Shown here: in pieces, positions 1,427-32,301 of the stretch
Layout of the letters: every line of letters starts with the position of its first letter
How positions within the stretch are numbered: the first letter of the stretch is position 1
Source of the DNA: an uncultured Clostridia bacterium
GTDB taxonomy: Bacteria > Bacillota > Clostridia > Christensenellales > UBA1242
Assembly (NCBI GenBank): GCA_934757825.1
Contig: CAKVLP010000001.1
Span: 366,869-430,868 of the forward strand
Direction of reading: 5' to 3'
DNA: 64,000 bases
Position numbers and translations under genes: made by a program
Notes under the pieces: model-generated
The model's database searches: none
What the model saw: the letters and a program-made list of their open reading frames with translations, nothing else
Told to the model about the DNA's origin: nothing

Positions 1427-4400
1427 ATGAAAAATCCAGCATTAAAAAAGAAAAGGAATTGGAGAAATATACTTACATATATTGCTACATATATTGTAGT
1501 AACTTTTTCCGTTGCTTTTGTGGTTGTTTCGTTTTCCAACAAAACTTATTCGGCTGGAAACACCGAACTAAAACCTAACACCAGTAGTTCGAGCGCGCTT
1601 GGAATGATGGTTACGCGCCTTATGGAAATGCAGGACGCCAACCTTGTGCTCAATGTAGACGCCGATAGAGGTGAGGACGAGATTGGGCTACAAGCCGACA
1701 TAAACCTTGTGATGTATCCGGGTTTGGAGGGCGCCGAAGTTAATGTAAACGCCGGACTTACCTACAACGATATATACTTTGATGTTAGTTTGACATACAA
1801 AGACGGAATGGCATATGTGTCGATTGGCGACAAAAATTATAGTATGAGCGCGTCGAGCATTATGTCGGCGACAATGAGCGTGTTGTCACTATGCGGAATT
1901 GACATTGACCTTAGTGGCGACCTTATGTCGAGTTTCGATATGAGTTTGCTAGATAGCCTTGGCGAGATTAAAGAGGAAAAACTTGATAATGGCGCTAAAT
2001 TAACAATCGCCCTTAACGACGCTATTAAGGTAGTTATACTTACTGACAAAGACTATAATATTAAAAATGTAAACTTAGACCGCATTACACTTAGCGGAAT
2101 GAATGTGGGTGCAAACGTGGTTTTCAATTCCACAAATAAGGGAACAAAAGTTAATGTTCCTAGCAAAGAATTTGTGGACGTAAGCGAAAGCGTTGGGCTT
2201 ATTGAAACCCTTTACAATACAGTTGCTGGCAAGAAAATTGGATTTAACTTTGACGCATTTGAAAGCCAAGTAAGCGTTGCGCTTGACCTTGAAAACAACA
2301 GTATGCAAGCAAAAGTTAACGCGCTTGACAACGACTTTGCACTTACTTTTAAAGACAACAAAATTTATTTGGACGCGGGTGTGCTAAAATTAAAATCCGA
2401 CCTTCCAAAGTTTGATTTACAACAACTTACTGGCGTTGTGGGTGCTTTGAGCGACGAGCAAGCGGACAAAATTAAAACAGTTTTGACTAAGGCTTACGAC
2501 GCGGTTAAAAATATTAACCTTAAAAATATCACCAAAACTGAATATGGATATGCTGTTAACTTTAACGATACACTAATTAAGTTTAAAGTAGTAGATGGCA
2601 AAGTAAATAGCATTGAAGTGGACGATACTTGCATTATCAACTTGTTTAGCGACGTTGCAATTTCGGTGGCAGACGAAAACTTTACAAATGTGACCAACTT
2701 AAAGTTCTTGCTACAACCTATTAGATCGCTTCTTAACGACAAGCAGTTTAGTGCTAATGTAGAACTTAGTGTATCCGACTTTACTCTTAACGGCATACTT
2801 AGCGTAGACTTTAAAGACAACAAACTTGTGCAGTTTAAGGCAGAGGTTATGGGTGTTGAAGTTATGCTAACCGTTACAAAAGACGGCGTGTACTTAAAAG
2901 CGGACGACATTAAGGTTATGACCGATTTTGCGTCGATTAGCAATGTGCTAGACGAGTTAAAATCGGACAGCGACAAGACAGATATTAACGACACACTTCA
3001 AAGAATTTTGAAAAAAACTATTGAGTTTGTAAAACCTAGCGCGAGCCAACTTGACGTAAAATATGGCGACTATACAATTAGCGTTGTTGCCGACGCGGGC
3101 AAATTTGATAGCATTAAAATTGCAAGCGACAAATTAAACGCAAACGTTAAATTTGCGGACGAATTTACAGTTGAGCAAAACTTTGAAGATTATGAAAAAA
3201 TAGACATCACAAAAGAAAAAATTGAAAGTATCAAAAACGCTGTTACTGGTAAAGTATATTCCTTTGACGGCACAGTAAATATTGGCGACACCACAATTGG
3301 TATCGAGGCAAAAGCGGATTTGACCGATTTACAAGACATCAAAGCCGAAGCGAAAATTGTGGCATATGACAAAACAATTGAAGTAAATGTTCAAGACAAC
3401 ACAATCTATGTAAAACTTGACGGTATTAAAATTAGCGGTTCGTTTAATGAAATAGTAGAACTAATAAACGCTGTTATGGATAGAATTAACGTCGTGCAAA
3501 CATACAGCCTAGAAGCCCCAAGCGGACTAGAAATTAAAGACATTCATCTAAGCCTAGTGGACGAGGAAATCGTGGTTTCGCTTAGCGTTAATGATAAAGT
3601 AATTTCGGCGGTACTTGACCTAAGCGAGTTAAGCCTTGACCTTAGAGCGGGCGAGGTTGTGGCAAGTGTGGCAGTCGATAAAGCAAGCGAGGTTAATACG
3701 CTTAGCCCAGCCGAAACGAGCGAGTACACCGCACAAGCGACACGCCTTTACGACTTGGCTGTTAGCGCCCTTAACACAGCAAAGGCCGAGCGGGTTCACG
3801 CAATTGCAACGCTCAATATCGCGGGCGAGATAATTGAGGTGGAATTAGGACTTGTCCACACCGACACAATCACAGTAAAATTTGAAACCACATTCAAAGG
3901 CATTAAGGTTGTGGGTTATGTGGCAGACAACAAAGTTTACATCAACGTGTTTGATATTTGCTTTATGTTTAACCTTAACAATTTGGATAAAAACCTAAAT
4001 CAAATAGCCGAAATATTCGACCTTGACCTTGGCGCAACTAAGGACATCGCTACAATTATTGAAACAATAAAACTTAACAATATTACAAAATTTGAGACCG
4101 ACAAAAACTCGTTTAAACTTACTTACAACGACATTGCATTAAAAGTGTTTACCTACAACGAGTTGATTTCAAGAGTTCAAGTAAACTATAACGATATTGA
4201 CGTAAATTTCTCAATAACATATCCAAACAATTATAGAATTGTTGTGTCCAACAACCGCGTTATCGAACTTGACAACTTGGCACCTGTTGGCAACGCGTTC
4301 TACAACACATTTAAGTCGCGCTCAATTTCTGGCGACATCGACTTGACGTTTGACCTATTTAAAGAGACCAACAGAATTACTGTAAACTATGGCGTTAAGA

Positions 4401-7400
4401 TTGGCGAAAACTTGACCGACATTTCGGGATATATTAAGACCACATTCAAAAATCTTGACATCAATATTTACTACATTGATAAGACATTCTATCTAGACGT
4501 TATCGGACTAAAATTAAAACTAAAATTTGACGATATTCCAAGCCTAGTAGATTGGATTAACGAAAACTTTGGCACGGATATCAATGTTGATAAATTGTTT
4601 GAAGACTTTAACATTGACGACCTTAGCCTTGACTTTATCACAAACGCGCACTTCGGCGACGACACCGTGACCGCAACTCTAATGGACAATATTCGCATAA
4701 CGGCCGAATACACCGACGTGTTTAATAGGGTTACTTTTGAAAATGGCACAACTAAGGCGATTTTGAATTGCACAAGGTTTGACGACTTTACGCTTAATGC
4801 GGTTGACACCGCCGACTTCGATAATTACACAGTTATTACCGATATTGTGGACGCTATCTACAACACCGCAAAACTAAGACAGTTTAACATCGTGGCAAAT
4901 AGCAAAGTGTTTAGAAACAATGCGGATTATCTAAATATCGACCTAAATCTAGCGCTTGATATTATTGAGAACACATTGGCTGACGGCACTAAGTCTACTA
5001 AGTTAAACGCAGGCGGAAGCGCGCGCGTTAGTGGCGAGACAAATGTTGCCCTAGATGTAAATTATCAAAACGAAAAACTTTATGTAAATTGGGAAGGCTT
5101 AAAACTAAGTATTCACAAAAATAGTATCAAAGAGATTTTGGGAATTGTGTTGCAAGTATTGAATGTAGACACTTCGGGCATTCCTGCACTTGAAAAAATC
5201 AAGAAAGAATTTGACATCGACACCGACAATTTGGGACAAATCGTTCCTACGTTATCGAATATCAATCCACTAAATTACTTGGAGTATATTAAGGGAATTG
5301 ATGTGACCGACGGCAAACTTCAAATTGTTATGAACGGTCAAAAACTTAACGGCGACCCTGACTTCAACCCAGCTATCACATTTGAAATGGCTGGCGGAAA
5401 ACTAGCAAACGTTGAGATTGAAAAACTTTACACTGGCGTTACTGCGGACGAAAATATCACTGTTAGCGTCCAACTAAAAGACTTCAACGGTGTGACCCAA
5501 GTATACGACAACGACTACATTGATATTTCAAATAGTTCGGATATTATAAGGGCATTTGTTAATACTTCGAACATGAACGACTATCATGTAAATGGTAGCG
5601 TTATAATGAACCTAAAACTTGGAAGTCTTGCAATTGATGCTGCAAAACTTAGTGTGGATATTAAAGTAAAACTAGATAATGATAAAAAGCCTATAATTGC
5701 GGTTGAAATTGGAAACTATCCTTTGATTGGTCTTGTTAATAATAAAAACACCAACGGTGTTGGAGATACGGGAATAGGTTTGATAAATCAGCGACATCGC
5801 ACGATTTATATTTATTATCGTGATGGAGAGATGTATCTTCAAACATCGGACGAACAGTGGGGATGGGGATTGATGTCTTATAAACAACTTGATCGGGTTA
5901 CCAAAGTTACACCAAGTTATTTGATGAATAATCTTAATTATTATATGCAGTGGTTGTTGGGCTTTACTGATAAAATTCAATCAAAAATCAACGAGGCAAT
6001 TGAAACAAGTAATAAGAATAAAGAAAAGGCACTTTCGGAAGGTTCTTTTGATTATAGCAATATTATCTTAAACTATGTAAAAAATGGTAACACTCATTCA
6101 TTTGATGTAAACATTGGAAAACTTGCTTACAATGACGACCTTGGCACTCTTCATGTTGATCTATCGACAGTTAATAATGCAAACACCGGAAACAAAGATT
6201 ATTTAGGCACAATCAACTTTAATCTTGATTTATTAAACAGCCTAATAATCTTAAAAACAGATAACAATAACAATTTAAAACTAACCGATATTGGTAGTAG
6301 TGTGGATATTTCTAACGCGTTAGTTGCTCTAAGTGATTCAAGATTCCAACTTGACGGGGAATACGAGAAAGAGGGCACTGGGAAATGGAATATGGCAAAT
6401 CAAGGAGATCGCACGGTTGTGTTGTATGATGGCGAAACATATGTTGCAACACTTACTGGGGCAATTGGTACTGCCATCAATCTTCCAGCATATTCTAATA
6501 GAGTGATTGACGATGGCAAGTCCGAAAAAGTTTATGTGTTCTTAGGCTGGTTTACAGCGGACGGAACGAAGTATACATCTACGGCATATCCTAGATATGA
6601 TACGACATTGTACACTAAGTGGAATTTAATAAGTGAAAGAACATACCATACAATTGAGTTTGTAACTAACGAAAATATTTCAGTAGAAAGTATTACGCGT
6701 TTGAATGGTGAACAGATAAATTTACCAGTGCTTAAAAACATTGAAATGGAGTATGATGATAATACGTCAATTCTAAAAGTGTTTAAGGGTTGGTACTTGG
6801 ATGAAAACTTTACGGAGTTGTATACCTCGGATACAATGCCAGACAGCGATGTTACTTTGTATGCTAAGTGGGAGACTCTGGAAACAAAGACTTACCATGT
6901 AAGTATATTTAGTGCTGGGACAGAGGTGTATAGCGGAAAAGTTCAGGCAGGTGTAAGTTTTGAATTCCCAGTAAACAATTTCTTTAAGAAAGATACTCTG
7001 TATTACTTGGATGCTGACTTTACGACACAAGTGACAAATTTTGTAATTAACAATGATACAACTTGGTATGCTAAAAACAAATACAATTACACAATCTACT
7101 CCAAATATACAACATTAAATGGTGCAGAATATAACAAACTTGAAAATGTTTACGAAGGAAGTACGATTACACTTCCTACATACTCAAATTACGAAATCGA
7201 TAATTTCTCTTATACTACTGAATACCATTTTATGGGGTGGAGTAAAGATGGAGATGCTACACTTATTAAAGGAAACACTGTTGTAGTCGCTGGCGATAGC
7301 AGTTATGTTGCAGTGTGGGAAGTAAAAGAGTATTGTGTTGTGACCTTTAATCCTAAGGGTTGGGCAAATCCAGCATGGTGGACTATCACTAAGAATATTA

Positions 7401-7672
7401 GATACATCTCTAATAGTTCGGTTTCGGGCACCAACAATAATACACTTAAAGTAGAGCGTGGTAAGAGTATTGATTTGACAATTTACAAAGCAACTTGCGT
7501 GTATGGCTATAAATTTGGCATAGAAAAGAAATACAGTTTTGAAACTGTAGCTTGGGCTGAAAATGCGATAAATCTATACGATGTTGCTGGTAGTTCACAG
7601 AAGTATAGCGGTGATACTACAATGACGATTGACAGCAATATTACTTTACAACCAGTATGGAAACATGTTTAA
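1427..7672 (+). CDS. giant (2081 aa) N-terminally anchored surface protein with C-terminal Listeria-Bacteroides (Flg_new / InlB B-repeat type) repeats
   Basis: RBS AAGGAGAA at 1418-1425, 9 nt after the previous stop. N-terminal TM helix (ILTYIATYIVVTFSVAFVVVSF). Uninterrupted 6.2-kb ORF. C-terminal units such as FLGWFTADGTKYTS...TLYTKWN and FKGWYLDENFTELYT...VTLYAKWE. Confidence 0.85.
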   Translation: MKNPALKKKRNWRNILTYIATYIVVTFSVAFVVVSFSNKTYSAGNTELKPNTSSSSALGMMVTRLMEMQDANLVLNVDADRGEDEIGLQADINLVMYPGLEGAEVNVNAGLTYNDIYFDVSLTYKDGMAYVSIGDKNYSMSASSIMSATMSVLSLCGIDIDLSGDLMSSFDMSLLDSLGEIKEEKLDNGAKLTIALNDAIKVVILTDKDYNIKNVNLDRITLSGMNVGANVVFNSTNKGTKVNVPSKEFVDVSESVGLIETLYNTVAGKKIGFNFDAFESQVSVALDLENNSMQAKVNALDNDFALTFKDNKIYLDAGVLKLKSDLPKFDLQQLTGVVGALSDEQADKIKTVLTKAYDAVKNINLKNITKTEYGYAVNFNDTLIKFKVVDGKVNSIEVDDTCIINLFSDVAISVADENFTNVTNLKFLLQPIRSLLNDKQFSANVELSVSDFTLNGILSVDFKDNKLVQFKAEVMGVEVMLTVTKDGVYLKADDIKVMTDFASISNVLDELKSDSDKTDINDTLQRILKKTIEFVKPSASQLDVKYGDYTISVVADAGKFDSIKIASDKLNANVKFADEFTVEQNFEDYEKIDITKEKIESIKNAVTGKVYSFDGTVNIGDTTIGIEAKADLTDLQDIKAEAKIVAYDKTIEVNVQDNTIYVKLDGIKISGSFNEIVELINAVMDRINVVQTYSLEAPSGLEIKDIHLSLVDEEIVVSLSVNDKVISAVLDLSELSLDLRAGEVVASVAVDKASEVNTLSPAETSEYTAQATRLYDLAVSALNTAKAERVHAIATLNIAGEIIEVELGLVHTDTITVKFETTFKGIKVVGYVADNKVYINVFDICFMFNLNNLDKNLNQIAEIFDLDLGATKDIATIIETIKLNNITKFETDKNSFKLTYNDIALKVFTYNELISRVQVNYNDIDVNFSITYPNNYRIVVSNNRVIELDNLAPVGNAFYNTFKSRSISGDIDLTFDLFKETNRITVNYGVKIGENLTDISGYIKTTFKNLDINIYYIDKTFYLDVIGLKLKLKFDDIPSLVDWINENFGTDINVDKLFEDFNIDDLSLDFITNAHFGDDTVTATLMDNIRITAEYTDVFNRVTFENGTTKAILNCTRFDDFTLNAVDTADFDNYTVITDIVDAIYNTAKLRQFNIVANSKVFRNNADYLNIDLNLALDIIENTLADGTKSTKLNAGGSARVSGETNVALDVNYQNEKLYVNWEGLKLSIHKNSIKEILGIVLQVLNVDTSGIPALEKIKKEFDIDTDNLGQIVPTLSNINPLNYLEYIKGIDVTDGKLQIVMNGQKLNGDPDFNPAITFEMAGGKLANVEIEKLYTGVTADENITVSVQLKDFNGVTQVYDNDYIDISNSSDIIRAFVNTSNMNDYHVNGSVIMNLKLGSLAIDAAKLSVDIKVKLDNDKKPIIAVEIGNYPLIGLVNNKNTNGVGDTGIGLINQRHRTIYIYYRDGEMYLQTSDEQWGWGLMSYKQLDRVTKVTPSYLMNNLNYYMQWLLGFTDKIQSKINEAIETSNKNKEKALSEGSFDYSNIILNYVKNGNTHSFDVNIGKLAYNDDLGTLHVDLSTVNNANTGNKDYLGTINFNLDLLNSLIILKTDNNNNLKLTDIGSSVDISNALVALSDSRFQLDGEYEKEGTGKWNMANQGDRTVVLYDGETYVATLTGAIGTAINLPAYSNRVIDDGKSEKVYVFLGWFTADGTKYTSTAYPRYDTTLYTKWNLISERTYHTIEFVTNENISVESITRLNGEQINLPVLKNIEMEYDDNTSILKVFKGWYLDENFTELYTSDTMPDSDVTLYAKWETLETKTYHVSIFSAGTEVYSGKVQAGVSFEFPVNNFFKKDTLYYLDADFTTQVTNFVINNDTTWYAKNKYNYTIYSKYTTLNGAEYNKLENVYEGSTITLPTYSNYEIDNFSYTTEYHFMGWSKDGDATLIKGNTVVVAGDSSYVAVWEVKEYCVVTFNPKGWANPAWWTITKNIRYISNSSVSGTNNNTLKVERGKSIDLTIYKATCVYGYKFGIEKKYSFETVAWAENAINLYDVAGSSQKYSGDTTMTIDSNITLQPVWKHV
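6407..7330 (+). repeat. about 5 tandem protein-level Flg_new-like repeats inside the 2081-aa ORF
   Basis: Recurrent pattern [FY]xGW[FYS]x(15-25)[LV][YW]A[KV]W at roughly 70-80 aa spacing (GWFTADG..YTKW, GWYLDEN..YAKW, YYLDADF..WYAK, MGWSKDG..VAVW). Boundaries approximate. Confidence 0.6.
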
Positions 7673-13988: not shown

Positions 13989-14411
13989 ATGATAGTAGAT
14001 GAAATTAAAAAAGCAAATATTGAGGCGCTTAAAAATCACGACGCAAACCTAAGAAGCATTTATAGTGTTATTATGAACAAAATAATGCTAGCCGGCATCA
14101 ACGCGCGCGCCAACGACACCGAAGTGACCGATGTGGACGTTGTTAAGATTATCCAAAAGACCATTAAGGAACTTGACGAAGAGGCTGAAAACTACAAAAA
14201 AGTTGGCAATATGGAAGAGTGCAATAAAATTGGACTTCAAAGAAAAGCAATCGAAAAATACTTGCCAGCAATGCTAAGCAAAGAGAAAATTAAAGAAATT
14301 ATTATGGGCTTAGACGACAAAACAGTGCCTAGCGTTATGCGTCACTTTAAAACAAACTACGCTGGTCAGTGCGACATGAAAGAAGTTAGCGAAGTTTTAA
14401 AATCACTTTAA
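13989..14411 (+). CDS. GatB/YqeY domain protein
   Basis: 140 aa. N-terminal IKKANIEALKNHDANLRSIYSVIMNKI and helical repeat layout typical of YqeY. 1 nt after the upstream stop. Confidence 0.6.
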   Translation: MIVDEIKKANIEALKNHDANLRSIYSVIMNKIMLAGINARANDTEVTDVDVVKIIQKTIKELDEEAENYKKVGNMEECNKIGLQRKAIEKYLPAMLSKEKIKEIIMGLDDKTVPSVMRHFKTNYAGQCDMKEVSEVLKSL

Positions 14412-14463
14412 TTTAAATGTTTTATATCCACTTTACTCAAAACTTAATAAGTATTATAAAAAA

Positions 14464-14490
14464 AACAACTCCTGGTGGGGTTGTTTTTTT
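14464..14490 (+). terminator. intrinsic terminator of the MazG-like/PanE-like/YqeY operon
   Basis: AACAACTCC-tggt-GGGGTTGTT (one G-U pair) followed by TTTTT. Confidence 0.7.
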
Positions 14491-14720
14491 ACTCATTTTG
14501 TGTGAAATATGTACAATTTGTAATTGTTGTTTTAAGTTTTAAACTATGTGATTATCAAAATTTGTTTCGACAAAAAACAACATTTTCTACTTTTTACCTA
14601 AAAATTACGACTTTTTGACAATAAGTGTATACTTGTTGGAAAAGTCGAAAAACAATTTAAAAATTTTCAATATTTTTGTTTGACACCCTATTTTTGTTAT
14701 GATAGTATCGAGGTAATAAA

Positions 14721-14768
14721 GCACAATTTGTTGTAGTTGTGGCAAAACACAAACACAATATATTGATT
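14721..14768 (+). promoter_or_regulatory. tandem NrdR-box candidates upstream of nrdD
   Basis: ACACAATATATTGATT (14753-14768) matches the NrdR-box consensus acaCwAtATaTwGtgt at about 14/16. GCACAATTTGTTGTAG (14721-14736) matches about 11/16. The start-to-start distance is 32 bp, the usual phasing of paired NrdR boxes. Confidence 0.5.
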
Positions 14769-14797
14769 GCCTTTATAATATATAAGGAGAGTATGTT

Positions 14798-17179
14798 ATG
14801 ATTACTAAAATTAGAAAAAGAGATGGTAGACTTGCAGACTACGACATCACGAAGATTGAAAATGCTATCGCAAAGGCTATGATGAGCATTGGCGACGGCG
14901 AAATTAAAGACTGCAAAAAGATGGCAAAAATCACCGAACTGTATTTGACCGAAAAATTCGTTGACGCTGTTCCATCTGTTGAAGACATTCAAGATATTGT
15001 TGAAAATGTTTTGATGAAAAATGGCTACGAAGATGTTGCGAAGGCTTACATTATATATCGTAGAGACCACGAAAAAATTAGAAACATTAGCAATACTTTC
15101 CTAGATTATAAGGCGACTGTTGATAAGTATCTAAAACTTGCCGATTGGCGTGTTAAGGAAAACAGCACTGTTACTTATTCGGTGGGTGGGCTTATTTTGT
15201 CCAACAGCGGTGCAATCACAGCCAACTACTGGCTAAGCGACGTGTACGACAAGGAGATTGAGCAAGCGCACAAAAATGCCGATATTCACATTCACGACCT
15301 TAGTATGCTTACAGGCTATTGCGCTGGCTGGTCGCTAAAACAACTTATCAAAGAGGGGCTTGGCGGGGTTCCTGGCAAAATCACAAGTAGCCCAGCAAAA
15401 CATCTAAGCACTCTTTGCAACCAAATGGTTAATTTCCTTGGCATTATGCAAAACGAATGGGCTGGCGCACAGGCGTTTAGTTCGTTTGACACATATCTTG
15501 CGCCATTCGTAAAGATTGACAACCTAAGTTATAAAGAAGTAAAACAAGGGCTTCAATCCTTTATTTACGGTGTTAACACTCCAAGCCGTTGGGGAACTCA
15601 GGCGCCATTTACAAACATCACGCTTGACTGGGTTGTTCCAAACGACTTAGCCGAACTTAACGCTATTGTTGGTGGTGTTGAGCAGGATTTTAAATATAAA
15701 GACTGCGTTAAAGAAATGGCGATGATCAATAAGGCGTTTATCGAAATTATGATTGAGGGCGACGCAAACGGCAGAGGATTCCAATATCCTATCCCTACAT
15801 ATTCTATCACCAAGGATTTTGATTGGTCGGACACCGAAAATAACCGCTTGTTGTTTGAAATGACCACCAAATATGGCACACCATATTTCTCCAACTACAT
15901 CAATAGCGATATGGAACCTAGCGATGTTAGAAGTATGTGTTGTAGGTTAAGACTTGACCTTAGAGAACTTCGCAGAAAATCGGGCGGATACTTTGGAAGT
16001 GGCGAGTCGACCGGAAGCGTGGGCGTTGTTACAATCAATATGCCACGTATTGCGTACTTGTCGAAATCGGAAGAGGAGTATTTTGACCGCCTTGGCAAAA
16101 TGATGGATATTTCCGCACGAAGCCTAAAAATAAAACGTGACACAATCACAAAACTTCTTGAAAATGGATTGTATCCTTACACCAAGAGATATCTTGGAAC
16201 ATTTGCAAATCACTTCTCCACAATCGGTCTAGTTGGTATGAACGAGGCATGTTTAAACGCCGTGTGGATTGGACAAGATTTAACACACAAGGAAGCACAA
16301 GAATTTACTAAAAAGACCCTTAACTTTATGCGCGATAGACTATCGACCTATCAAGAGGAATATGGCGACCTTTATAACTTGGAAGCAACTCCTGCTGAGA
16401 GCACATCATATCGTCTTGCTAAACACGACAAAGAGCGCTGGCCAGATATCATCACTGCCAACGACGATAGCAAGGTGCCATATTACACCAATTCTAGCCA
16501 CTTGCCAGTTGGATACACCGACGATATTTTCAAAGCACTTGACGTTCAAGACGAACTTCAAACCTTGTACACTTCGGGCACGGTTTTCCACACGTTCTTG
16601 GGTCAACGCCTAGAAGACTGGAAAGCAACAATGAATTTGGTTAGAAAAATTGCTGAAAACTACAAACTTCCTTACTACACAATGAGCCCAACTTATTCGG
16701 TTTGTGCGACTCACGGCTACTTGGACGGCGAACAACACACTTGTCCACATTGTGGCGGGCCAACTGAGGTGTATAGCCGAATTACCGGATATTATAGACC
16801 GGTTGCAAACTGGAACGACGGCAAGAGCCAAGAGTTTAAGGATAGAAAAAATTACAATATCGCAACATCTAAAATGGAACATTGCCACAAAAAAGATTGC
16901 GAGTGTGCTTGCCACGAAGAGGAACATCACGTAGACGAAAAGTTTGCAAAACCAGTGTTGTTTACATCTCCAACTTGTCCAAATTGCAAAATGGCAAAAA
17001 CCATAATGACTAATGCAAAATTCGATTTCGATACGCTTGACGCTGTGGAAAACCGAGAACTTTGCGAGCGACTTGGAATTAAAAAAGCACCTACGCTTTT
17101 AATTCAAAAGGGCGATATGCAAATGATGTTTGATAATGTGAGTGACATTAAAAAATATATAGAAGGATTGAAAAAATAA
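14798..17179 (+). CDS. nrdD: anaerobic (class III) ribonucleoside-triphosphate reductase with fused C-terminal thioredoxin-fold domain
   Basis: RBS AAGGAGAG. ATP-cone-like N-terminus (ITKIRKRDGRLADYDITKIENAI). C-terminal Cys cluster VCATHG...CPHCG and glycyl-radical motif SRITGYYRPV near aa 664. Then an extra ~130 aa. Confidence 0.9.
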   Translation: MITKIRKRDGRLADYDITKIENAIAKAMMSIGDGEIKDCKKMAKITELYLTEKFVDAVPSVEDIQDIVENVLMKNGYEDVAKAYIIYRRDHEKIRNISNTFLDYKATVDKYLKLADWRVKENSTVTYSVGGLILSNSGAITANYWLSDVYDKEIEQAHKNADIHIHDLSMLTGYCAGWSLKQLIKEGLGGVPGKITSSPAKHLSTLCNQMVNFLGIMQNEWAGAQAFSSFDTYLAPFVKIDNLSYKEVKQGLQSFIYGVNTPSRWGTQAPFTNITLDWVVPNDLAELNAIVGGVEQDFKYKDCVKEMAMINKAFIEIMIEGDANGRGFQYPIPTYSITKDFDWSDTENNRLLFEMTTKYGTPYFSNYINSDMEPSDVRSMCCRLRLDLRELRRKSGGYFGSGESTGSVGVVTINMPRIAYLSKSEEEYFDRLGKMMDISARSLKIKRDTITKLLENGLYPYTKRYLGTFANHFSTIGLVGMNEACLNAVWIGQDLTHKEAQEFTKKTLNFMRDRLSTYQEEYGDLYNLEATPAESTSYRLAKHDKERWPDIITANDDSKVPYYTNSSHLPVGYTDDIFKALDVQDELQTLYTSGTVFHTFLGQRLEDWKATMNLVRKIAENYKLPYYTMSPTYSVCATHGYLDGEQHTCPHCGGPTEVYSRITGYYRPVANWNDGKSQEFKDRKNYNIATSKMEHCHKKDCECACHEEEHHVDEKFAKPVLFTSPTCPNCKMAKTIMTNAKFDFDTLDAVENRELCERLGIKKAPTLLIQKGDMQMMFDNVSDIKKYIEGLKK
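16946..17179 (+). other. thioredoxin/glutaredoxin-like CPxC domain fused to NrdD
   Basis: PVLFTSPTCPNCKMAKTIM...ELCERLGIKKAPTLLIQKGD: beta-strand, CPNC (Cys codons at 16976 and 16985), helix, then a cis-Pro-type APT loop. Preceded by the linker MEHCHKKDCECACHEEEHH (16874-16930). Confidence 0.65.
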
Positions 17180-17181
17180 TT

Positions 17182-18090
17182 ATGTTTGATATAACAATAA
17201 TTGGCAGTGGGGTGGCAGGAATGACTGCTGCCCTTTATGCTTTGCGAGGTGACAAAAGCGTGCTTGTGCTAGAGCGTGAAACCTACGGCGGACAGATCGC
17301 CAAGTCGCCAAAAGTGGAAAATTACCCTACCATTAAGAGCATCTCGGGCTACGAACTTAGCGACAAAATGTACGAGCAGATAATCGACCTTGGCGCAAAT
17401 TTCGAACTTGAAGAGGTCGAAAAACTCGAAAAGGACGGAGATATATTTAAAATAACCACCGATTATCACACATACGAGTCGAAAAGTGTGGTTATTGCCA
17501 ACGGTGTAAAGCCAAGAATGTTGGGGCTAAATAGGGAAGACGAGTTGCTAGGCAAGGGCGTGTACTATTGCGCCATTTGCGACGGTCCATTCTATAAGGG
17601 CAAAGACGTTGTTTTGGTGGGTGACGGCAACAGCGCTATGCAGTACGCGCTACTTCTAGCCGGATTTTGCCATAAGGTAACAATGGTCACAATGTTTGAT
17701 ATGTTCTTCGGCGAAAAAGCGCTTGAAGAAGCAGTGAGAAATAACAAAAAAATTGAAATTATCCCGAATGCGGTCGCTAGCAAGTTGATTGGCGAGGAGT
17801 CGCTTGAAAAGGTTGAGTTTAAAAGGACTGATGGCTCAACATTCGAGATAGCCACCCCTGCACTTTTTGTTGCGATTGGTCAGGTGTCAGACAACGATAA
17901 GTTTAAGGATTTGGTCGACTTAGATAATGCCGGCTATATTTTGGCGGACGAAAGTTGCACCACCAAGACCGCTGGGCTTTTTGTCGCTGGGGATTGCCGT
18001 GCGAAAAGGGTTAGACAGGTCGCAACCGCAGTAGGCGACGGTGCAGTGGCTGGCACGCAAGCGGTTAATTATGTAAATTCGCTTAAATAG
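17182..18090 (+). CDS. trxB: low-Mr thioredoxin reductase homologue, atypical pyridine-nucleotide site
   Basis: FAD motif IIGSGVAGMTAA, redox-active CAICDG, second GxGxxA (GDGNSA), C-terminal GDCR...AVGDGAVAG. The HRRxxxR motif is replaced by TMFDMFF. Confidence 0.8.
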   Translation: MFDITIIGSGVAGMTAALYALRGDKSVLVLERETYGGQIAKSPKVENYPTIKSISGYELSDKMYEQIIDLGANFELEEVEKLEKDGDIFKITTDYHTYESKSVVIANGVKPRMLGLNREDELLGKGVYYCAICDGPFYKGKDVVLVGDGNSAMQYALLLAGFCHKVTMVTMFDMFFGEKALEEAVRNNKKIEIIPNAVASKLIGEESLEKVEFKRTDGSTFEIATPALFVAIGQVSDNDKFKDLVDLDNAGYILADESCTTKTAGLFVAGDCRAKRVRQVATAVGDGAVAGTQAVNYVNSLK

Positions 18091-18098
18091 GAAAAATT

Positions 18099-18782
18099 AT
18101 GAAAATATATGGATTAGAAAAGTTGTCAATGGTCGATTTCGGAAGCCTTTGCTCCGCAGTGATTTTCACGGGCGGGTGCAATTTTAGGTGCCCGTTTTGC
18201 CACAACTCTGGACTTGTGAATTTGGACGTAACTCCGCTTGACGAACAAGAGGTTTTTGATTATCTAATCTCTCGAAAAAAACTACTCGACGGCGTAGTTG
18301 TTAGCGGAGGCGAGCCTACACTTTATCCCGATTTGCCCGAGTTTATTAAAAAAATTAAGGATTTGGGATATAAAATAAAACTCGACACCAATGGCACAAA
18401 CTATGCGATGCTAAAAAAACTAATTGACGAAAAACTTGTGGATTTTGTGGCTATGGACATTAAAAACTCGCTTGAAATGTATCCGCTCACTGCGGGCACA
18501 ACTTGTGGGCAAGAGGATATTGTAAAAAGCATAGAACTTTTGAAAACCAACGTGGTTGACTACGAATTTCGCACAACTCTTGTGGACGGTTTGCATACTA
18601 ATGCGTCCATTAAAGAAATGGGCGAAATTGTTAAGGGCGCTAAAAAAATGTATCTTCAAAAATTTGTCGATAATGGAACAACAATAAAAGGCGGTTTAAA
18701 AGAAGTGCCAAAAGACAAAGCCGAGGAATATAAAAATATCCTTTCAAATTATGTGACCTCTGTTTCCCTCCGCGGATACTAA
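18099..18782 (+). CDS. nrdG: anaerobic ribonucleotide reductase activating protein (radical SAM)
   Basis: CxxxCxxC cluster in GGCNFRCPFCHN, SAM-binding GGEPTL. 227 aa, directly downstream of nrdD and the trxB-like gene. Confidence 0.85.
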   Translation: MKIYGLEKLSMVDFGSLCSAVIFTGGCNFRCPFCHNSGLVNLDVTPLDEQEVFDYLISRKKLLDGVVVSGGEPTLYPDLPEFIKKIKDLGYKIKLDTNGTNYAMLKKLIDEKLVDFVAMDIKNSLEMYPLTAGTTCGQEDIVKSIELLKTNVVDYEFRTTLVDGLHTNASIKEMGEIVKGAKKMYLQKFVDNGTTIKGGLKEVPKDKAEEYKNILSNYVTSVSLRGY

Positions 18783-19079: not shown

Positions 19080-19442
19080 ATGAAAATTAAAGATTGGGAA
19101 AAGTATGTAACTGAAAAATATGGTGCAGTAAAAGTAACAGAATTCGACGATTTAAAAAACTATTTAAGTGACCAGCGAAACTATGCACACAATTTTACAC
19201 CAGAGGAAATCACGGAAACAGAGATTATGAACGATGAATATTATGGCGCATACATTTTCGATGAAAATAAAATCGCTGGCAGAGAAGTGATAACCAAATA
19301 TGAATCTTGTTGGAATAGATTGATTGTTGTATTGGCATCAGATGATAAGGTCAATATTTCAAACTATTGTATTAATGCTGCTGGTGGTTTAACCGATGAG
19401 GAAAGTAGCAGGTTCTATAATGACATTAACCCATTAAAATGA
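19080..19442 (+). CDS. hypothetical cytoplasmic protein (120 aa)
   Basis: RBS AAGGAAGAG. Acidic, no TM segment or signal peptide. No family recognised. Bracketed by the duplicated hairpins. Confidence 0.55.
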   Translation: MKIKDWEKYVTEKYGAVKVTEFDDLKNYLSDQRNYAHNFTPEEITETEIMNDEYYGAYIFDENKIAGREVITKYESCWNRLIVVLASDDKVNISNYCINAAGGLTDEESSRFYNDINPLK

Positions 19443-19946: not shown

Positions 19947-20092
19947 TTTAATCCTCCTTAAAAACAATTTTGTTATTATATTTTTTGCAAAATTTGTCGG
20001 AATATACATCTTGCAAAACACTTAATAGTGTTGTCAAACTATTGACTTAAAATGATATTTGGTATAATATAGTTTTGTTTTTAGGAGGACGT

Positions 20093-21055
20093 ATGTGGGA
20101 AGCGATACTCGATGCAATACTCGACGCACTTAAAGTATTTCCAATATTGCTACTTTGCTATGTTTTGATAGAACTCATTGAGTTAAAAACTGCAAAATCA
20201 CTGCAAAATAGCCGATTTTTGAAGGGGAAATTTGCCCCTTTGTTTGGCGCAGGTGTTGGGCTTGTTCCGCAGTGTGGATTTTCGGTTATTGCAACCGATT
20301 TGTACACTAAAAAATCGCTTTCGCTTGGCACGCTTATGGCAATCTATATTGCGACTAGCGACGAAGCAATCCCAATACTTTTGTCCAATTCGTATAGCGC
20401 GGGCAAATTGTGGCTAATACTACTTATCAAATTTGGTCTTGCAATTGTTGTGGGCTACTCGGTTATGCTACTAGGCCATTTTGTAAAACCGAAACAAGAT
20501 TACATCGAAAAAATTGAATATATTGACGATAAAAAGTCGTCGAAAATAAATGTGACTGATAGTGATTGCGAACATGATTACTTGATGGGCGAGATGAACG
20601 CCCCAGATGGAGAGCACCACACAGGCTGCTGCGGCCACGAGATAGAAGAAGAGGGTGGGAAACTTACATTTTGGCAGTTTATAAAACATCCGCTTTTGCA
20701 TAGCGCAAGGATTTTTGCATTTATCCTTGGCATAAACCTTGTGGTCGGACTGCTAGTTTATTTCATAACCGAGGACGCAATTTTATCTTTTCTAAACACC
20801 ACAACTTGGCTTCAACCGATTTTTGCGGGGTTAGTTGGGCTTATCCCAAACTGTGCATCTAGCGTGGTTATTAGCAAATTTTTTGCAATGGGTGGGCTTA
20901 CACTTGGCGCGTGCGTGGCAGGGCTTTCCGCCAACGCAGGTCTTGGACTAATGATGCTTATAAAACAAAACAAAAACAGAAAACAAACCATTTTGATTAT
21001 CCTATCGCTATATTTAATAAGTGTAGTTGCGGGATATATAATCACTTTAATATAG
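20093..21055 (+). CDS. polytopic membrane protein resembling the putative 10-TM heavy-metal exporter (ArsP_2-like) family
   Basis: Start at ATG 20093 behind AGGAGG. N-terminus MWEAILDAILDALKVFPILLL. Two hydrophobic halves separated by a His/Cys/Glu-rich loop (DSDCEHDYLMGEMNAPDGEHHTGCCGHEIEEEGG). Confidence 0.5.
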   Translation: MWEAILDAILDALKVFPILLLCYVLIELIELKTAKSLQNSRFLKGKFAPLFGAGVGLVPQCGFSVIATDLYTKKSLSLGTLMAIYIATSDEAIPILLSNSYSAGKLWLILLIKFGLAIVVGYSVMLLGHFVKPKQDYIEKIEYIDDKKSSKINVTDSDCEHDYLMGEMNAPDGEHHTGCCGHEIEEEGGKLTFWQFIKHPLLHSARIFAFILGINLVVGLLVYFITEDAILSFLNTTTWLQPIFAGLVGLIPNCASSVVISKFFAMGGLTLGACVAGLSANAGLGLMMLIKQNKNRKQTILIILSLYLISVVAGYIITLI

Positions 21056-28632: not shown

Positions 28633-31600
28633 ATGAAAAAGAAGTTAACATATATACTTTCAATCCTTATGTTTATCCCTTGTATGTTGGGACTTGTGGC
28701 CTGCGGAAGCAATAAGGGCGACGGAAAAGGGAATGGAGGCGGAAGTGGAGATGGTGGCAAACAGCCGTCCAATCCTAGCAGTTTGACTGAGGAAGAAATA
28801 AAGTCATATATCCCAAATGAGTTTTCATTCAAATCGGGCGTTAAAATGACGATTTCCACAAATAGCACGTTTAATGGACAAACAGCCGAAACTGTTTTGA
28901 CCTATTACAAAACTGGTAACAACGAAATCGTTTCGACGCAAAACCAGTTCGATTCCATATCAGACGGCGAAGTTATAAAAAACGACAACGATAGGATATT
29001 TATCAAAATCGGCGATAAATACTACGAAAAAACTCGCGACAACTTGCGTGACAAGCAATACACCACTGAGGAAACAAGCAAGGGCGGTTATCAAAGATTT
29101 ATTGCACAAGAAATGAAATATCTAAGCGATTTGACTAAGTACATTGATTACGCCGAAAACCTAAACGTAGAGATGTCAAAAGACATTTTGGGCTCGGACT
29201 ACAAAACCACATATTCTGGCAAACAAGTTAAGGAATATGATGAGGATTTAAGAAAAAATGTAATTACATACGACATTAAAATGAGCACAATATTTGTGTT
29301 GTCGTTCCCTGAGGATAATTGGTATCCTACAAAAATTGAAGATGCTTTCTATGCACCAACCGAACTTAAAGCATATTCAGTGGACGTAAAAGTTATCCTT
29401 AACGAGGACAAAACTTACAATCACGTAGAACTACTTGTACAAAGACACAAAGATTACACTCCAGCTAGCTTAGAAGACGAAAAATATGAAAAAACCGTAA
29501 TCGACTTTGAATACGGTAAAAAGGTTAATTTCAATAATCCCGACTTGCTAGAAGGATTAAAGAGCACTCCATCTTTTGGCGAAGTTACATTTGACGGCGC
29601 CGAAATTGGCGATTTCAAAAGTAGATATAGCAATGGCGAAAAAGTTACTCTTCCTACTCCAACCAAGGACGGCGCAACATTCTTGGGTTGGTACTATGAT
29701 GCGGGTTATACAATGCCAGTTGAAAATAATGTAATAACAGTTGTGGGAAGCACAAGCAACTACACCAATAGAGTGTTTGCAAAATGGAGCAACGGCGGCC
29801 GCCCAACACTTGTTATGAACGGCGGAAAGTTCTCTGCAAACGCAGAAGAGAATTTCAACGAAGCAGTTTCGGTTGGAAATATGCGTAGTGTTGTGCTAGA
29901 GCAATATGGCAAGGCGTTTGTGGGCTTCTACAAAGACGCCGAATTTAGCGAGATGATAGACTATTACAGCGAAGAGCCACTTACTTCCGATATGACATTC
30001 TATGCAAAATGGGTTAACTTAGAAAGAGTTACTATCAACACTAGCCACTTTACATACAAGACAATCGACCAAATGGGAAAACCTGGCTACAAACTTTACG
30101 CCCCAGTGGTTGAAACCGAAGCGGGCTGGATTTTCAAAAACTGGATTGACAACAATGACGTGACTTACACCGAGTCGACGGTCAACAACATTAAGTTTGG
30201 CGAAATCACATCATTGACCGCTGTTTTCGAACAAGGCACAATCGTGCGAGTTCACGACATCGAAACCGTGCTAGGTTGGGTAGAGACCGAGGGCGATGAC
30301 AAAGACGGCAAAGAACTAGATACTTACTTTATTTACGGCGAAGACACCGAAAAATCTATAAAATACAACACAACAAGATATAACGATTGGCTAAACGAAA
30401 ATAAAGGGCAAGAAGCAGATGATTCCCAATTCCCTGTTAACAACGACCTTATATACACAGTGACAGTCCCAACAGGAAAATATATAACTAACGAATGGGG
30501 AGGGGGAGGTTTTTCGGATATGTGGGATCAATTGCCTAAGGACATGAAGAACAAATATCGTAGCACCGTTCCAGTACCTGGCTGGACTATCCCATATATG
30601 GGCTTTACTGTACCGCTATATTACTACGGCTTGTCCACAAATAAGCCAACAGTCGATAACCCATGGCAAAGATCTAACAATGTTATGGCAACGGGAGAAC
30701 CGATTGATATGTGGGTGCTTGTTAAGCCACACGATATCGTTAACTTCCAAATCAAAATATATGGCTTTGATGAGCCTATTAAATGTAGGGATTATTTTGA
30801 TACAGAAGCCGAGCCAGTTGGTGGCAAATACGGCAGAGATGACGAAGTGTTCTTCCCATCGTACTGGTACGAAACATACAATTTCCCAGCAGGCACAACT
30901 TACAAAGATTGGGTTTTGGAACCTGATCACATTAAGTACTATGATTACAATTGGTGGGAAGATAGAGTTATAGGCACAGCAGGTGACTTCCAAGCATTGA
31001 AAGAGGCGATTATAAGAGAAAAATTATGGTTGGACGGCGACACTCCTACGCTATATGTAAAACTAGAAAGATACACCACAGTTAATGCTCATGTGGGCGA
31101 TACAACAACAAAGTTATATCCTATTTTCAAAGACTTTATGGAAGAAAATGATAGTGCACTTATTAGATATTTGAGTTATGGATATTCGGAAGACGAGGGC
31201 GAGACTCAATATGTTCCGCTTCCTGCGAAATACTATTTCGATATGCCTTTCAATGGTATTTACTATGCTCCTGTATCCACGCTTGGAGTCCCAGCGGGCA
31301 AAATTATTGAGGGTTATTACTACGATGCCCAGTTTACAAATCCTTGCGACCTATTTGGCACTATGATGTTTGATAGACTCTATGCTGGCGAAAATATTGA
31401 CATTTATGCTAAGTTTGTTGACGCCGATTCTATACAAGTTCGTGTTGAAAACAAATCATATTTCTATGACAAATCTTACTCTTTTATAAGGAAGGATGAA
31501 ACAACTGAAAATGGCACAATTAAGAAATATGGGACAGTAACACAAAATGATAATTCGGAGTATTTCTTCACATTTACTTCTCCCGTGGGTCTTTATGACG

Positions 31601-32301
31601 GATGGAGAGAAAACCTAACGGAAATGAACAATGCAGACTATAAATATCTTGATGTGCTTTTGGAACTTGGATATTTAAGGAAAGTGGATTTACTTCAAAA
31701 GACTGCAAAATATGACTTCGTTACCGACGGCAATGATGCTATGAAAAACTACACTGTTGAAAACACTTCTGGCACAAAAATTGGCGACTTGTACAATGGT
31801 TACAATAATCCCGATAAAGACGAATCAGAGGGTGGAGAAACAACCACCACTACTGGCAGATACTACTATGTATATGAGTTTACGAATGTCGACTCAAACG
31901 GCACACTTGTGTTTGATTATAACGACCTTATTGCAATTTGGCAAAGATTTATGGAAAAATATGATGGGACACTTATGTTCAAAATTTCACTTAACGACGT
32001 ATTCAATTATGTAAATGTTACCGAAGTAAGGTACTTCACACAAAATACTTGGAGCCTTGATTCTGATGGCAACATTGACCTAAATGGTTTTAGTGACGGT
32101 GAATGTAATGTTGTTATTGGAAATAATTGTTATTTACATTATAACGACAAAGATGGGAATGGCAACTCAGGTTACATCCGTGTGATTTTAGGGGCTTATG
32201 ATAATGATGATACACGAAGAGAAGAGCAAGATGTATTTTATCTTGACAAAACATTCACAATGTGCACAGAACTTGATCATAGAAACAATAGTAATTCATA
32301 A
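28633..32301 (+). CDS. large (1222 aa) surface lipoprotein with Flg_new-type repeats
   Basis: RBS AAGGAGAA. Lipoprotein signal MKKKLTYILSILMFIPCMLGLVAC followed by a Gly-rich linker (GSNKGDGKGNGGGSGDGG). Repeats FLGWYYDAGYT...VFAKWS, FVGFYKDAEFS...FYAKWV, WIFKNWIDNND...AVFE. Confidence 0.85.
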   Translation: MKKKLTYILSILMFIPCMLGLVACGSNKGDGKGNGGGSGDGGKQPSNPSSLTEEEIKSYIPNEFSFKSGVKMTISTNSTFNGQTAETVLTYYKTGNNEIVSTQNQFDSISDGEVIKNDNDRIFIKIGDKYYEKTRDNLRDKQYTTEETSKGGYQRFIAQEMKYLSDLTKYIDYAENLNVEMSKDILGSDYKTTYSGKQVKEYDEDLRKNVITYDIKMSTIFVLSFPEDNWYPTKIEDAFYAPTELKAYSVDVKVILNEDKTYNHVELLVQRHKDYTPASLEDEKYEKTVIDFEYGKKVNFNNPDLLEGLKSTPSFGEVTFDGAEIGDFKSRYSNGEKVTLPTPTKDGATFLGWYYDAGYTMPVENNVITVVGSTSNYTNRVFAKWSNGGRPTLVMNGGKFSANAEENFNEAVSVGNMRSVVLEQYGKAFVGFYKDAEFSEMIDYYSEEPLTSDMTFYAKWVNLERVTINTSHFTYKTIDQMGKPGYKLYAPVVETEAGWIFKNWIDNNDVTYTESTVNNIKFGEITSLTAVFEQGTIVRVHDIETVLGWVETEGDDKDGKELDTYFIYGEDTEKSIKYNTTRYNDWLNENKGQEADDSQFPVNNDLIYTVTVPTGKYITNEWGGGGFSDMWDQLPKDMKNKYRSTVPVPGWTIPYMGFTVPLYYYGLSTNKPTVDNPWQRSNNVMATGEPIDMWVLVKPHDIVNFQIKIYGFDEPIKCRDYFDTEAEPVGGKYGRDDEVFFPSYWYETYNFPAGTTYKDWVLEPDHIKYYDYNWWEDRVIGTAGDFQALKEAIIREKLWLDGDTPTLYVKLERYTTVNAHVGDTTTKLYPIFKDFMEENDSALIRYLSYGYSEDEGETQYVPLPAKYYFDMPFNGIYYAPVSTLGVPAGKIIEGYYYDAQFTNPCDLFGTMMFDRLYAGENIDIYAKFVDADSIQVRVENKSYFYDKSYSFIRKDETTENGTIKKYGTVTQNDNSEYFFTFTSPVGLYDGWRENLTEMNNADYKYLDVLLELGYLRKVDLLQKTAKYDFVTDGNDAMKNYTVENTSGTKIGDLYNGYNNPDKDESEGGETTTTTGRYYYVYEFTNVDSNGTLVFDYNDLIAIWQRFMEKYDGTLMFKISLNDVFNYVNVTEVRYFTQNTWSLDSDGNIDLNGFSDGECNVVIGNNCYLHYNDKDGNGNSGYIRVILGAYDNDDTRREEQDVFYLDKTFTMCTELDHRNNSNS

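Follow-up and report, generated by a model that had tools for sequence, protein, structure and literature searches.

Class III ribonucleotide reductases (RNRs), which are sensitive to oxygen, provide the sole source of DNA precursors for many strict anaerobes, among them a large proportion of the gut Clostridia and uncultured Bacilli. The NrdD3 operon of Methanosarcina barkeri reportedly (Wei et al. 2015) includes an NrdH-like redoxin and a ferredoxin:disulfide reductase and is independent of pyridine nucleotides; the redoxin is said to be a separate protein and the reductase an Fe-S enzyme. The finger loop of NrdD3 is QCCR/A, and this group has neither the methionine nor the glutamate (PMC9669993). 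The precedent for a thioredoxin-dependent NrdD is provided by the enzymes of Neisseria bacilliformis and Thermotoga maritima (NrdD2), glycyl-radical proteins with a beta-A cysteine, a double-cysteine finger loop and an active-site glutamate, for which the reductant is a protein dithiol (PMC4390871, PMC9669993). These proteins have the SCCR form of the loop, depend on free thioredoxin, a general thioredoxin reductase (TrxR) and NADPH, and end soon after the glycyl-radical domain. A redoxin domain joined to an RNR component is known from the Grx::ATP-cone::NrdB protein of Facklamia ignava, in which the fused glutaredoxin (Grx) was shown to be the physiological reductant of a class I RNR (PMC6187632). 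Finally, class I and class II catalytic subunits bear C-terminal cysteine tails that relay electrons from redoxins (PMC4390871, PMC5704485). We analyzed a stretch of 64,000 nucleotides (hereafter the window) from an uncultured Clostridia bacterium (GTDB lineage Bacteria; Bacillota; Clostridia; Christensenellales; UBA1242; assembly GCA_934757825.1, contig CAKVLP010000001.1, positions 366,869 to 430,868 of the forward strand), in which a three-gene operon encodes an NrdD with a C-terminal redoxin domain, a TrxR-like flavoprotein and the activase NrdG. The operon probably encodes a class III RNR that carries its own protein reductant, the redoxin re-reducing the disulfide of the active site and the flavoprotein recycling the redoxin.

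The locus shares features with each of these systems and departs from each. Like the M. barkeri operon, it is a class III operon with a redoxin of its own, and its reductase, like the M. barkeri enzyme, may be independent of pyridine nucleotides; it differs in that the redoxin is attached and the reductase is a flavoprotein. In comparison with NrdD2, the window protein has MCCR instead of SCCR, an attached redoxin, and an operon-encoded flavoprotein lacking the NADPH motifs, and it matches T. maritima NrdD with only 138 bits. The F. ignava fusion, in contrast, is N-terminal, lies on the radical-generating subunit of an aerobic enzyme and is glutathione-dependent (CPWC). Whereas the class I and II tails are short cysteine pairs or zinc fingers fed by free redoxins, the extension described here is a whole redoxin domain, and the cysteines of the linker that precedes it are not conserved.

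We confirmed that the product of the first gene is a class III RNR catalytic subunit, NrdD, with a C-terminal thioredoxin-fold fusion. The features of the gene are as follows.

14798 to 17179, forward strand: nrdD-redoxin fusion gene, 793 amino acids, consisting of ATP-cone, NrdD, linker and thioredoxin-fold domain.
14807 to 15073, forward strand: ATP-cone, residues 4-92 (PF03477, E 2.6e-22).
15158 to 16855, forward strand: NrdD catalytic barrel and glycyl-radical domain, residues 121-686 (PF13597, E 7e-191).
15320 to 15322, forward strand: C175, beta-A active-site cysteine (GYCAGW), aligned with the T. maritima NrdD cysteine in PYCFAY; invariant in 59 homologues.
15935 to 15946, forward strand: finger loop M380-C381-C382-R383, a double-cysteine loop with a methionine, aligned with SCCR of T. 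maritima and MGCR of the formate-type Prevotella copri enzyme.
16382 to 16384, forward strand: E529 (YNLEATPAE), active-site glutamate, aligned with the T. maritima glutamate in FNIEQVPAE.
16703 to 16753, forward strand: putative C-terminal zinc-ribbon ligands C636, H639, C649 and C652 (VCATHG...CPHCG), invariant in 59 homologues.
16778 to 16795, forward strand: glycyl-radical motif RITGYY (G664; SRITGYYRPV), invariant in 59 homologues.
16862 to 16951, forward strand: linker, residues 689-718, predicted to be disordered.
16874 to 16930, forward strand: Cys/His-rich stretch MEHCHKKDCECACHEEEHH inside the linker.
16952 to 17176, forward strand: thioredoxin-fold redoxin domain, residues 719-793 (Pfam, AlphaFold2, Foldseek and profile search).
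16976 to 16987, forward strand: CPNC active site (C727, C730) within the redoxin domain.

The NrdD portion scored above the curated cut-offs (in parentheses) of all three profiles, with 636 bits for PF13597 (26.2), 524 for TIGR02487 (326) and 1127 for the NCBIfam model NF006126 (548), the last match spanning residues 2-688. The glycyl motif, the zinc ribbon, the finger-loop cysteines and the beta-A cysteine all align with those of solved NrdDs; the T. maritima beta-A cysteine is Cys125 (PMC4493059). In the structure-sequence alignment the T. maritima glutamate is residue 495 (chain numbering) and the P. copri equivalent is a leucine. By homology, the ribbon would bind zinc. Because the Pfam NRDD match ends at residue 686 and the NF006126 match at 688, NrdD homology stops 22-24 residues after the glycyl motif, as in a canonical enzyme (T. 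maritima NrdD terminates 30 residues past the radical glycine), and about 105 further residues follow. The open reading frame (ORF), which begins 8 nt downstream of an AAGGAG ribosome-binding site, is uninterrupted, with no stop codon or frameshift within 16870-16946. A reading of the sequence alone (hereafter the sequence-only reading) had described the NrdD landmarks with the cysteine cluster and the glycyl motif near residue 664, an extension past the canonical end, a linker at 16874-16930, and a tail resembling the small glutaredoxin-like thioredoxins; all of these held, the linker to the exact coordinate. That reading had also raised an interruption at the junction as the mark of an artificial fusion, and none was present, the identical protein being found on 13 independent contigs (see below).

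The redoxin domain, PVLFTSPTCPNCKMAK..., reaches to the stop codon. By itself the tail scored above the Pfam curated cut-offs for Glutaredoxin (PF00462; 33.3 bits against 22.9, E 6e-8) and Thioredoxin (PF00085; 27.9 against 23.5). In an AlphaFold2 model of residues 689-793, residues 720-793 formed a beta-alpha-beta-alpha-beta-beta-alpha fold with pLDDT above 90 (strands at model positions 32-35, 57-60, 78-83 and 86-90; helices at 40-51, 65-71 and 93-103). Helix 1 has the CPNC motif at its N-terminus, residues A764-P765-T766 make up the cis-Pro loop, and neither C-P-N-C nor P-T varies in the redoxin-family alignment. Foldseek returned small thioredoxins at probability 1.0, for example Thermosipho africanus Trx1 and the TrxA of the Bacillus subtilis RNR complex. 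When the domain family was used as a profile, the first matches were PDO 'glutaredoxin-like proteins' of archaea and thermophiles, together with the MJ0307 thioredoxin 1fo5 (E 3e-8); solved NrdH structures matched only weakly (E 7e-5). The top NCBIfam match of the tail was the MJ0307-family model TIGR00411, yet its 28 bits fell below the cut-off of 92.75, as did the 22.1 bits for the NrdH-redoxin model TIGR02194 (cut-off 85.75). CVQC and WSGFRP are hallmarks of NrdH, and both are absent from the tail. By these profile comparisons, the nearest relatives are the small MJ0307/PDO-type 'glutaredoxin-like' thioredoxins, which are related to the tail but are not the same family.

Far from being rare, the fusion architecture is found across hundreds of species. 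The same 793-residue protein, 100% identical, is encoded in the same operon on 13 independent contigs assembled from different metagenomes of the human gut. All 120 homologues among the matches listed (80-100% identity) are 784-950 residues long and combine NRDD and ATP-cone with a Glutaredoxin or Thioredoxin domain, and in 162 full-length homologues MCCR was present in 161, NLEATPAE in 160, and a C-terminal xTCPNC[KR] in 161. An exhaustive HMMER search with the tail gave 487 cluster representatives; most of the 25 inspected were fragments or full-length NrdD fusions. In a scan of GTDB, with one genome per species, at least 596 redoxin loci were confirmed, mainly in Clostridia (including Lachnospiraceae, Ruminococcus, Faecalibacterium, Blautia, Acutalibacteraceae and Oscillospiraceae) and in uncultured Bacilli including Erysipelotrichaceae, with the caveat that a few bins have unlikely names and may be mis-binned. 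Eighty of these loci were fetched for detailed reading, making 81 with the window. The redoxin shared a stop-to-stop frame with the NrdD glycyl-radical motif in 79 of the 80, and no CPNC domain was recognized in the remaining one. The finger loop of the 79 fusions was MCCR in 75 and KCCR in one, three ORFs cut by contig ends leaving it unrecovered; the active-site glutamate was present in 78, the other being a cut ORF without that region. Among 24 matching viral loci in IMG/VR, 21 were fusions (MCCR in 19, NCCR in one, one cut ORF), some of them almost linker-free, and in deposited phage genomes the domain appeared in one record only, unannotated.

Some fusions contain what read as intein-like insertions, namely P0176 (a 599-residue fragment) and P0163 (1314 residues). 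In P0176 an insertion of about 157 residues (CPMHKDTYV...GIITHN) interrupts the finger loop itself, separating RSM from CRLRLD, and canonical splicing would give a single cysteine (SMCR) and not MCCR.

A free-standing redoxin beside an unfused nrdD was looked for as a Rosetta-stone test, and no true split version was found among the candidates checked. Two apparently free genes were rejected as such: P0009 (locus L001) reflects a frameshift in an A-run inside a fusion gene, and P0010 (L115) an in-frame stop (EVY*RITGYY) inside another. Both proved to be broken fusion genes, and the redoxin family is therefore, as far as sampled, dedicated to NrdD as an appendage. A different arrangement was seen in L114 (a contig of JGI 3300024268, positions 1195-1647; protein P0006), where 150 residues consist of the first ~66 residues of GatB, a CEC linker and a CPNC redoxin; next come a TrxR-like gene and an nrdG in convergent orientation, and the upstream ORF is glycosidase-like and is not an NrdD body. 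P0011 has the same GatB-redoxin junction, which could be what is left of a rearrangement or else an assembly chimera.

The active-site residues bear on the type of reductant. Double-cysteine motif and glutamate, the two diagnostic positions, match T. maritima (SCCR/Glu) and differ from P. copri (MGCR/Leu). According to Burnim et al. (PMC9669993), these residues underlie a disulfide-forming chemistry in which the enzyme is reduced by thioredoxin, the glutamate being the proposed proton donor in formate-independent class III RNRs. Two of the features by which that study recognizes the thioredoxin-dependent subtype (NrdD2 sensu Wei 2014) are present in the window enzyme: the double-cysteine finger loop together with the beta-A cysteine, and the active-site glutamate (equivalent to N. 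bacilliformis E438). The same study notes that 83% of double-cysteine class III enzymes retain the methionine, and that most of them (MCCR) have the residues for either formate or thioredoxin, a choice that it left open; the window enzyme falls within this majority. Our main comparative argument is that the redoxin was found, wherever the finger loop was readable, only on CC-type enzymes, with the glutamate wherever that position was readable, and never on a single-cysteine, formate-type MGCR NrdD among the approximately 100 fusion loci, arguing that it serves turnover. The very common natural fusion of MCCR-type NrdD to a redoxin, in many loci beside a dedicated flavoprotein, is strong comparative evidence for thiol-driven enzymes.

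The remaining genes of the operon follow directly.

17182 to 18090, forward strand: TrxR-like flavoprotein, 302 amino acids; its ATG lies 2 nt past the nrdD-redoxin stop.
17569 to 17586, forward strand: CAICDG, redox-active CxxC of the flavoprotein (residues 130-135).
From 17620, forward strand: GDGNSAMQ in place of GGGxxAxE in the flavoprotein.
17689 to 17712, forward strand: TMFDMFFG in place of the HRR-type NADPH motif in the flavoprotein.
18099 to 18782, forward strand: nrdG, radical-SAM activase (TIGR02495 NrdG2, 203 bits against a cut-off of 131); its ATG lies 8 nt past the flavoprotein stop.

The flavoprotein retains its FAD motifs (GSGVAG from residue 8 and GDCR from residue 270), but both of its NADPH motifs, GGGxxAxE and VxxxHRRDx[F/L]R, are replaced, by GDGNSAMQ and VTMVTMFDMFFG, respectively; the motif criteria for NADPH-dependent TrxR are those of PMC5627308 and PMC10880999. 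It scored 306.6 bits against TIGR01292, the model for NADPH-dependent low-Mr thioredoxin reductases, below the cut-off of 343.45, and NCBI labels its homologues 'FAD-dependent oxidoreductase'. With its motifs replaced and its score below the cut-off, we reject its identity as a canonical NADPH thioredoxin reductase. Decay does not account for the replacement, because the alternative is conserved in all 120 of the closest homologues (down to 61% identity), which have CxxCDG, GD[GA]NSA and an FD-x-FFGE-type motif, in nearly all cases T[ML]FD[KR]FFGE. Given that both NADPH-binding motifs are replaced, the electron donor is probably not NADPH; candidates are a low-potential carrier (ferredoxin or flavodoxin) and NADH. 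The clostridial and cyanobacterial FFTR and the Desulfovibrio TRi, flavoenzymes for which NAD(P)H is not the donor, likewise combine the low-Mr TrxR scaffold, CxxC and FAD motifs with loss of GGGxxAxE and HRRDxxR (PMC10880999, PMC5627308). TRi, however, has TQ/NGK where the window class has T[ML]FD[KR]FFGE, and an assignment to the clostridial FFTR was dropped, since the flavoprotein scores higher with structures of canonical NTRs (208 bits) than with FFTR (6gnc, 139 bits); it is, moreover, encoded beside nrdD. The sequence-only reading, which had placed a TrxR homologue and nrdG directly downstream, was right about the presence of both genes, and the cassette is conserved, but the former is not a canonical NADPH TrxR. 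Its proposal of a redoxin-reduced subtype agrees with C175, the double-cysteine loop and E529; with the methionine retained, formate use is also possible under the published criteria.

The nrdD-redoxin/flavoprotein/nrdG cassette was seen again after rplM-rpsI, with a flavoprotein 63% identical to that of the window, and those flavoprotein homologues whose loci were inspected belong to the same three-gene cassette despite different flanking genes. A TrxR-like gene lies directly downstream of the fusion in 53 of the 81 loci. It is of the FD-x-FF class in about 31 (20 strict and 11 unclassified, mostly close variants), of a QNLxxLTGE class that also lacks HRR in 10, and of the canonical HRR type in 12, leaving 28 loci with none adjacent. 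The QNLxxLTGE class (GGGNSA...[VL]Q[ND]LxxLTGE; loci L025, L034, L061, L063, L066, L069, L070, L072, L079 and L081) was seen in some Clostridia, including Oscillospiraceae; because it also directly follows fusions, the fusion is paired with at least three reductase types. If it holds that the window class uses another donor, this class would add a donor type to the thioredoxin-reductase family.

From the observed architecture, active-site residues, fold, conservation and co-occurrence of the parts, we infer how electrons would be passed on at each step, and what would donate them, as follows. NrdG would put the glycyl radical on G664, and a thiyl radical in the finger loop, on C381/C382, would initiate nucleoside triphosphate reduction. 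C175 and a finger-loop cysteine would supply the two electrons, with E529 handling the proton, leaving an active-site disulfide. The CPNC domain on its flexible tether would re-reduce this disulfide, in cis or on the partner subunit, and the adjacent flavoprotein, through its FAD and CAIC dithiol, would re-reduce the tethered redoxin with electrons drawn from a probably non-NADPH donor such as ferredoxin, flavodoxin or NADH. A more specific version, in which the chain is a complete one for anaerobic dNTP synthesis, is independent of pyridine nucleotides and runs from a low-potential carrier through a new RNR-dedicated TrxR-like class (GD[GA]N[ST]A, T[ML]FD[KR]FFGE) to the tethered redoxin and, in the cysteine-rich lineages, to a swinging linker dithiol convergent with the class I/II tails, is speculative, and we hold it doubtful as a whole. 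If true, the MCCR-plus-Glu majority of double-cysteine class III RNRs would be driven by thiols and not by formate.

Several observations weigh against a turnover role of the redoxin with a dedicated flavoprotein. The clades described as solely thioredoxin-dependent lack the methionine, and the window motif is MCCR, not SCCR; because Met380 is retained, formate use by the window enzyme is possible by the criteria of PMC9669993. Overall similarity does not bring the protein closer to T. maritima: it scores 138 bits against that NrdD and 150 bits against the formate-type NrdD of P. copri, which places it, on these scores, outside the N. bacilliformis/T. maritima subclade. The flavoprotein partner is not uniform, because 28 of the 81 loci lack a TrxR-like neighbor and in 12 that neighbor is of the canonical HRR type. 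A conserved ferredoxin or flavodoxin gene near the cassette was not found, the CxxCxxCxxxCP motif occurring only in three unrelated ORFs across the 81 loci. Finally, the full-length AlphaFold2 model was poor (shallow alignment, pLDDT 67, pTM 0.55) and was uninformative on CPNC's access to the active site.

The linker calls for separate consideration. Its pLDDT was below 50 in both AlphaFold2 models (residues 689-710 in the 689-793 model), and among close homologues it is the sole hypervariable part of a protein that is otherwise at least 80% identical. The 123 distinct linkers are 21-39 residues long and about 15% identical to that of the window, yet they share a composition: cysteine makes up 11.9% of residues compared with 1.7% in the protein body, histidine 6.1% compared with 1.9%, and glutamate 16.9% compared with 6.9%. 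At least two cysteines are present in 158 of 161 linkers of the close homologues, the commonest closest spacings being CxC (72), CC (26) and Cx4C (16), and 68 of the 123 unique linkers have at least four cysteines plus histidine. When the loci were sorted by adjacent reductase, linkers with at least two cysteines accompanied 15 of 20 FD-x-FF genes, one of 12 HRR genes, and five of the 28 fusions with none adjacent, a link to the flavoprotein class that may be functional or merely phylogenetic. Since linker cysteines are restricted to certain lineages and missing from many fusions, they are dispensable for the fusion, and the Cys/His-rich linker is an accessory and not the core of the system.

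It is plausible, though on balance unlikely, that the linker is a metallothionein-like metal-binding segment, a zinc or iron reservoir or a buffer for the zinc ribbon, standing outside electron transfer; the sequence-only reading had suggested an additional metal site here. Hypervariable positions combined with conserved composition are typical of low-complexity metal-binding tails, and both the Cys/His/Glu enrichment and the number of linkers with four or more cysteines plus histidine are in keeping with such a role; the ligand geometry, however, is not conserved, the segment is predicted to be disordered, and many fusions lack it. Some 1.3 kb past the nrd operon, a putative 10-transmembrane (TM) metal exporter of the ArsP_2 type (20075-21055) also has a Cys/His/Glu-rich loop (DSDCEHDY...GEHHTGCCGHEIEEEGG), with no established link to the linker of the NrdD fusion.

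A further candidate role for the linker, as a swinging dithiol (CxC, CC or Cx4C) that shuttles electrons from CPNC to the active site in the manner of the class I/II tails, strikes us as improbable. The near-universal cysteine pairs of the close homologues and their excess over the body (~12% against 1.7%) would suit it, as would the predicted disorder, a property of class I tails (PMC5704485). Nevertheless, the cysteines are mostly missing where the neighbor is HRR-type or no TrxR is adjacent, the viral versions that are nearly linker-free imply that they cannot be essential to the fusion, the enrichment in histidine and glutamate favors metal binding, and the association with the FDxFF flavoprotein class may be shared ancestry. 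As an essential shuttle in general, the cysteine-rich linker is rejected, many fusions having no linker cysteines.

We give similarly little credence to a role of the redoxin in activation or maintenance, according to which formate, acting via Met380 and C175, would be the turnover reductant and the redoxin would keep the cysteines of the zinc ribbon and glycyl domain reduced for NrdG. Thioredoxin is reported to play an activating part for the class III RNR of E. coli (PMC4390871), the redoxin directly follows the glycyl-radical/zinc-ribbon module, the near-linkerless viral versions suit local action, and Met380 is retained. Against it stand the absence of redoxins from MGCR enzymes in the ~100 fusion loci, and the second finger-loop cysteine in all fusions and the glutamate wherever readable, which are the residues of disulfide chemistry; and the presence of a dedicated flavoprotein suggests that electrons flow stoichiometrically, not just for repair now and then. 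Least of all can the fusion be put down to an assembly or sequencing artefact uniting two separate genes, since P0009 and P0010, which at first hinted at split versions, carry an A-run frameshift and an in-frame stop within fusion genes, and the ORF is identical on 13 independent contigs and fused in 161 full-length homologues and in 79 of 80 genome loci.

The combination of a class III RNR with an attached redoxin is visible in databases and has been listed once, but it is neither described nor characterized in the literature searched. A search for NrdD with a thioredoxin-like domain or a TrxR operon, which did not extend to Wei et al. 2014, returned a single entry: the RefSeq survey in Table S1 of PMC6187632 lists one 'Glutaredoxin:NrdD', from Lachnospiraceae bacterium TWA4 (NrdDd, WP_082039398.1), without description. 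This protein may have the same architecture as the window fusion. In a systematic study of RNR extensions, the class III C-terminus was treated solely as the glycyl-radical domain. The sequence-only reading had known of no characterized class III enzyme with such a fusion, which agrees with our search, and had asked whether the architecture might be common and already characterized; it is common (at least 596 species genomes and 21 of 24 matching viral contigs), but one table entry does not amount to characterization. The cassette offers a self-contained three-protein test system for the reductant used, for the access of a protein reductant to a glycyl-radical active site, and for the electron donor, and it points to an RNR-associated flavoprotein class of its own.

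Upstream of the operon, two elements suggest control by NrdR.

14753 to 14768, forward strand: NrdR-box-like palindrome ACACAATATATTGATT, 30 nt ahead of the nrdD start codon; it departs from ACACWATATATWGTGT at two positions and is the window's best match.
14721 to 14736, forward strand: weaker second NrdR-box-like copy, about 32 nt further upstream.

Here ACACWATATATWGTGT is the NrdR-box consensus, and both boxes are putative. A riboswitch upstream of nrdD was rejected, an Rfam scan of 14300-14900 having given nothing significant. No other RNR gene and no pyruvate formate-lyase gene was found among the scanned window ORFs of at least 200 residues (about 6 of the 28 were not scanned).

The flanking genes are ordinary Bacillota chromosomal genes, encoding oligoendopeptidase F, ApbA/PanE, YqeY, UppP, YchF, MnmA, a class II aminoacyl-tRNA synthetase and a P-type ATPase. 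An ORF of 120 residues after nrdG (19080-19442) has no Pfam match, and its position is kept in all five of the displayed contigs with the identical fusion. Three giant ORFs presumably encode surface proteins: one of 4097 residues (51418-63711) has no Pfam match at E 1e-5, and two others, of 2081 (1427-7672) and 1222 residues (28633-32301), have only Listeria-Bacteroides repeat domains. The ORF at 33900-35192 combines collagen triple-helix repeats with a BclA C-terminal domain, an exosporium-like composition that hints at spore formation by the organism.

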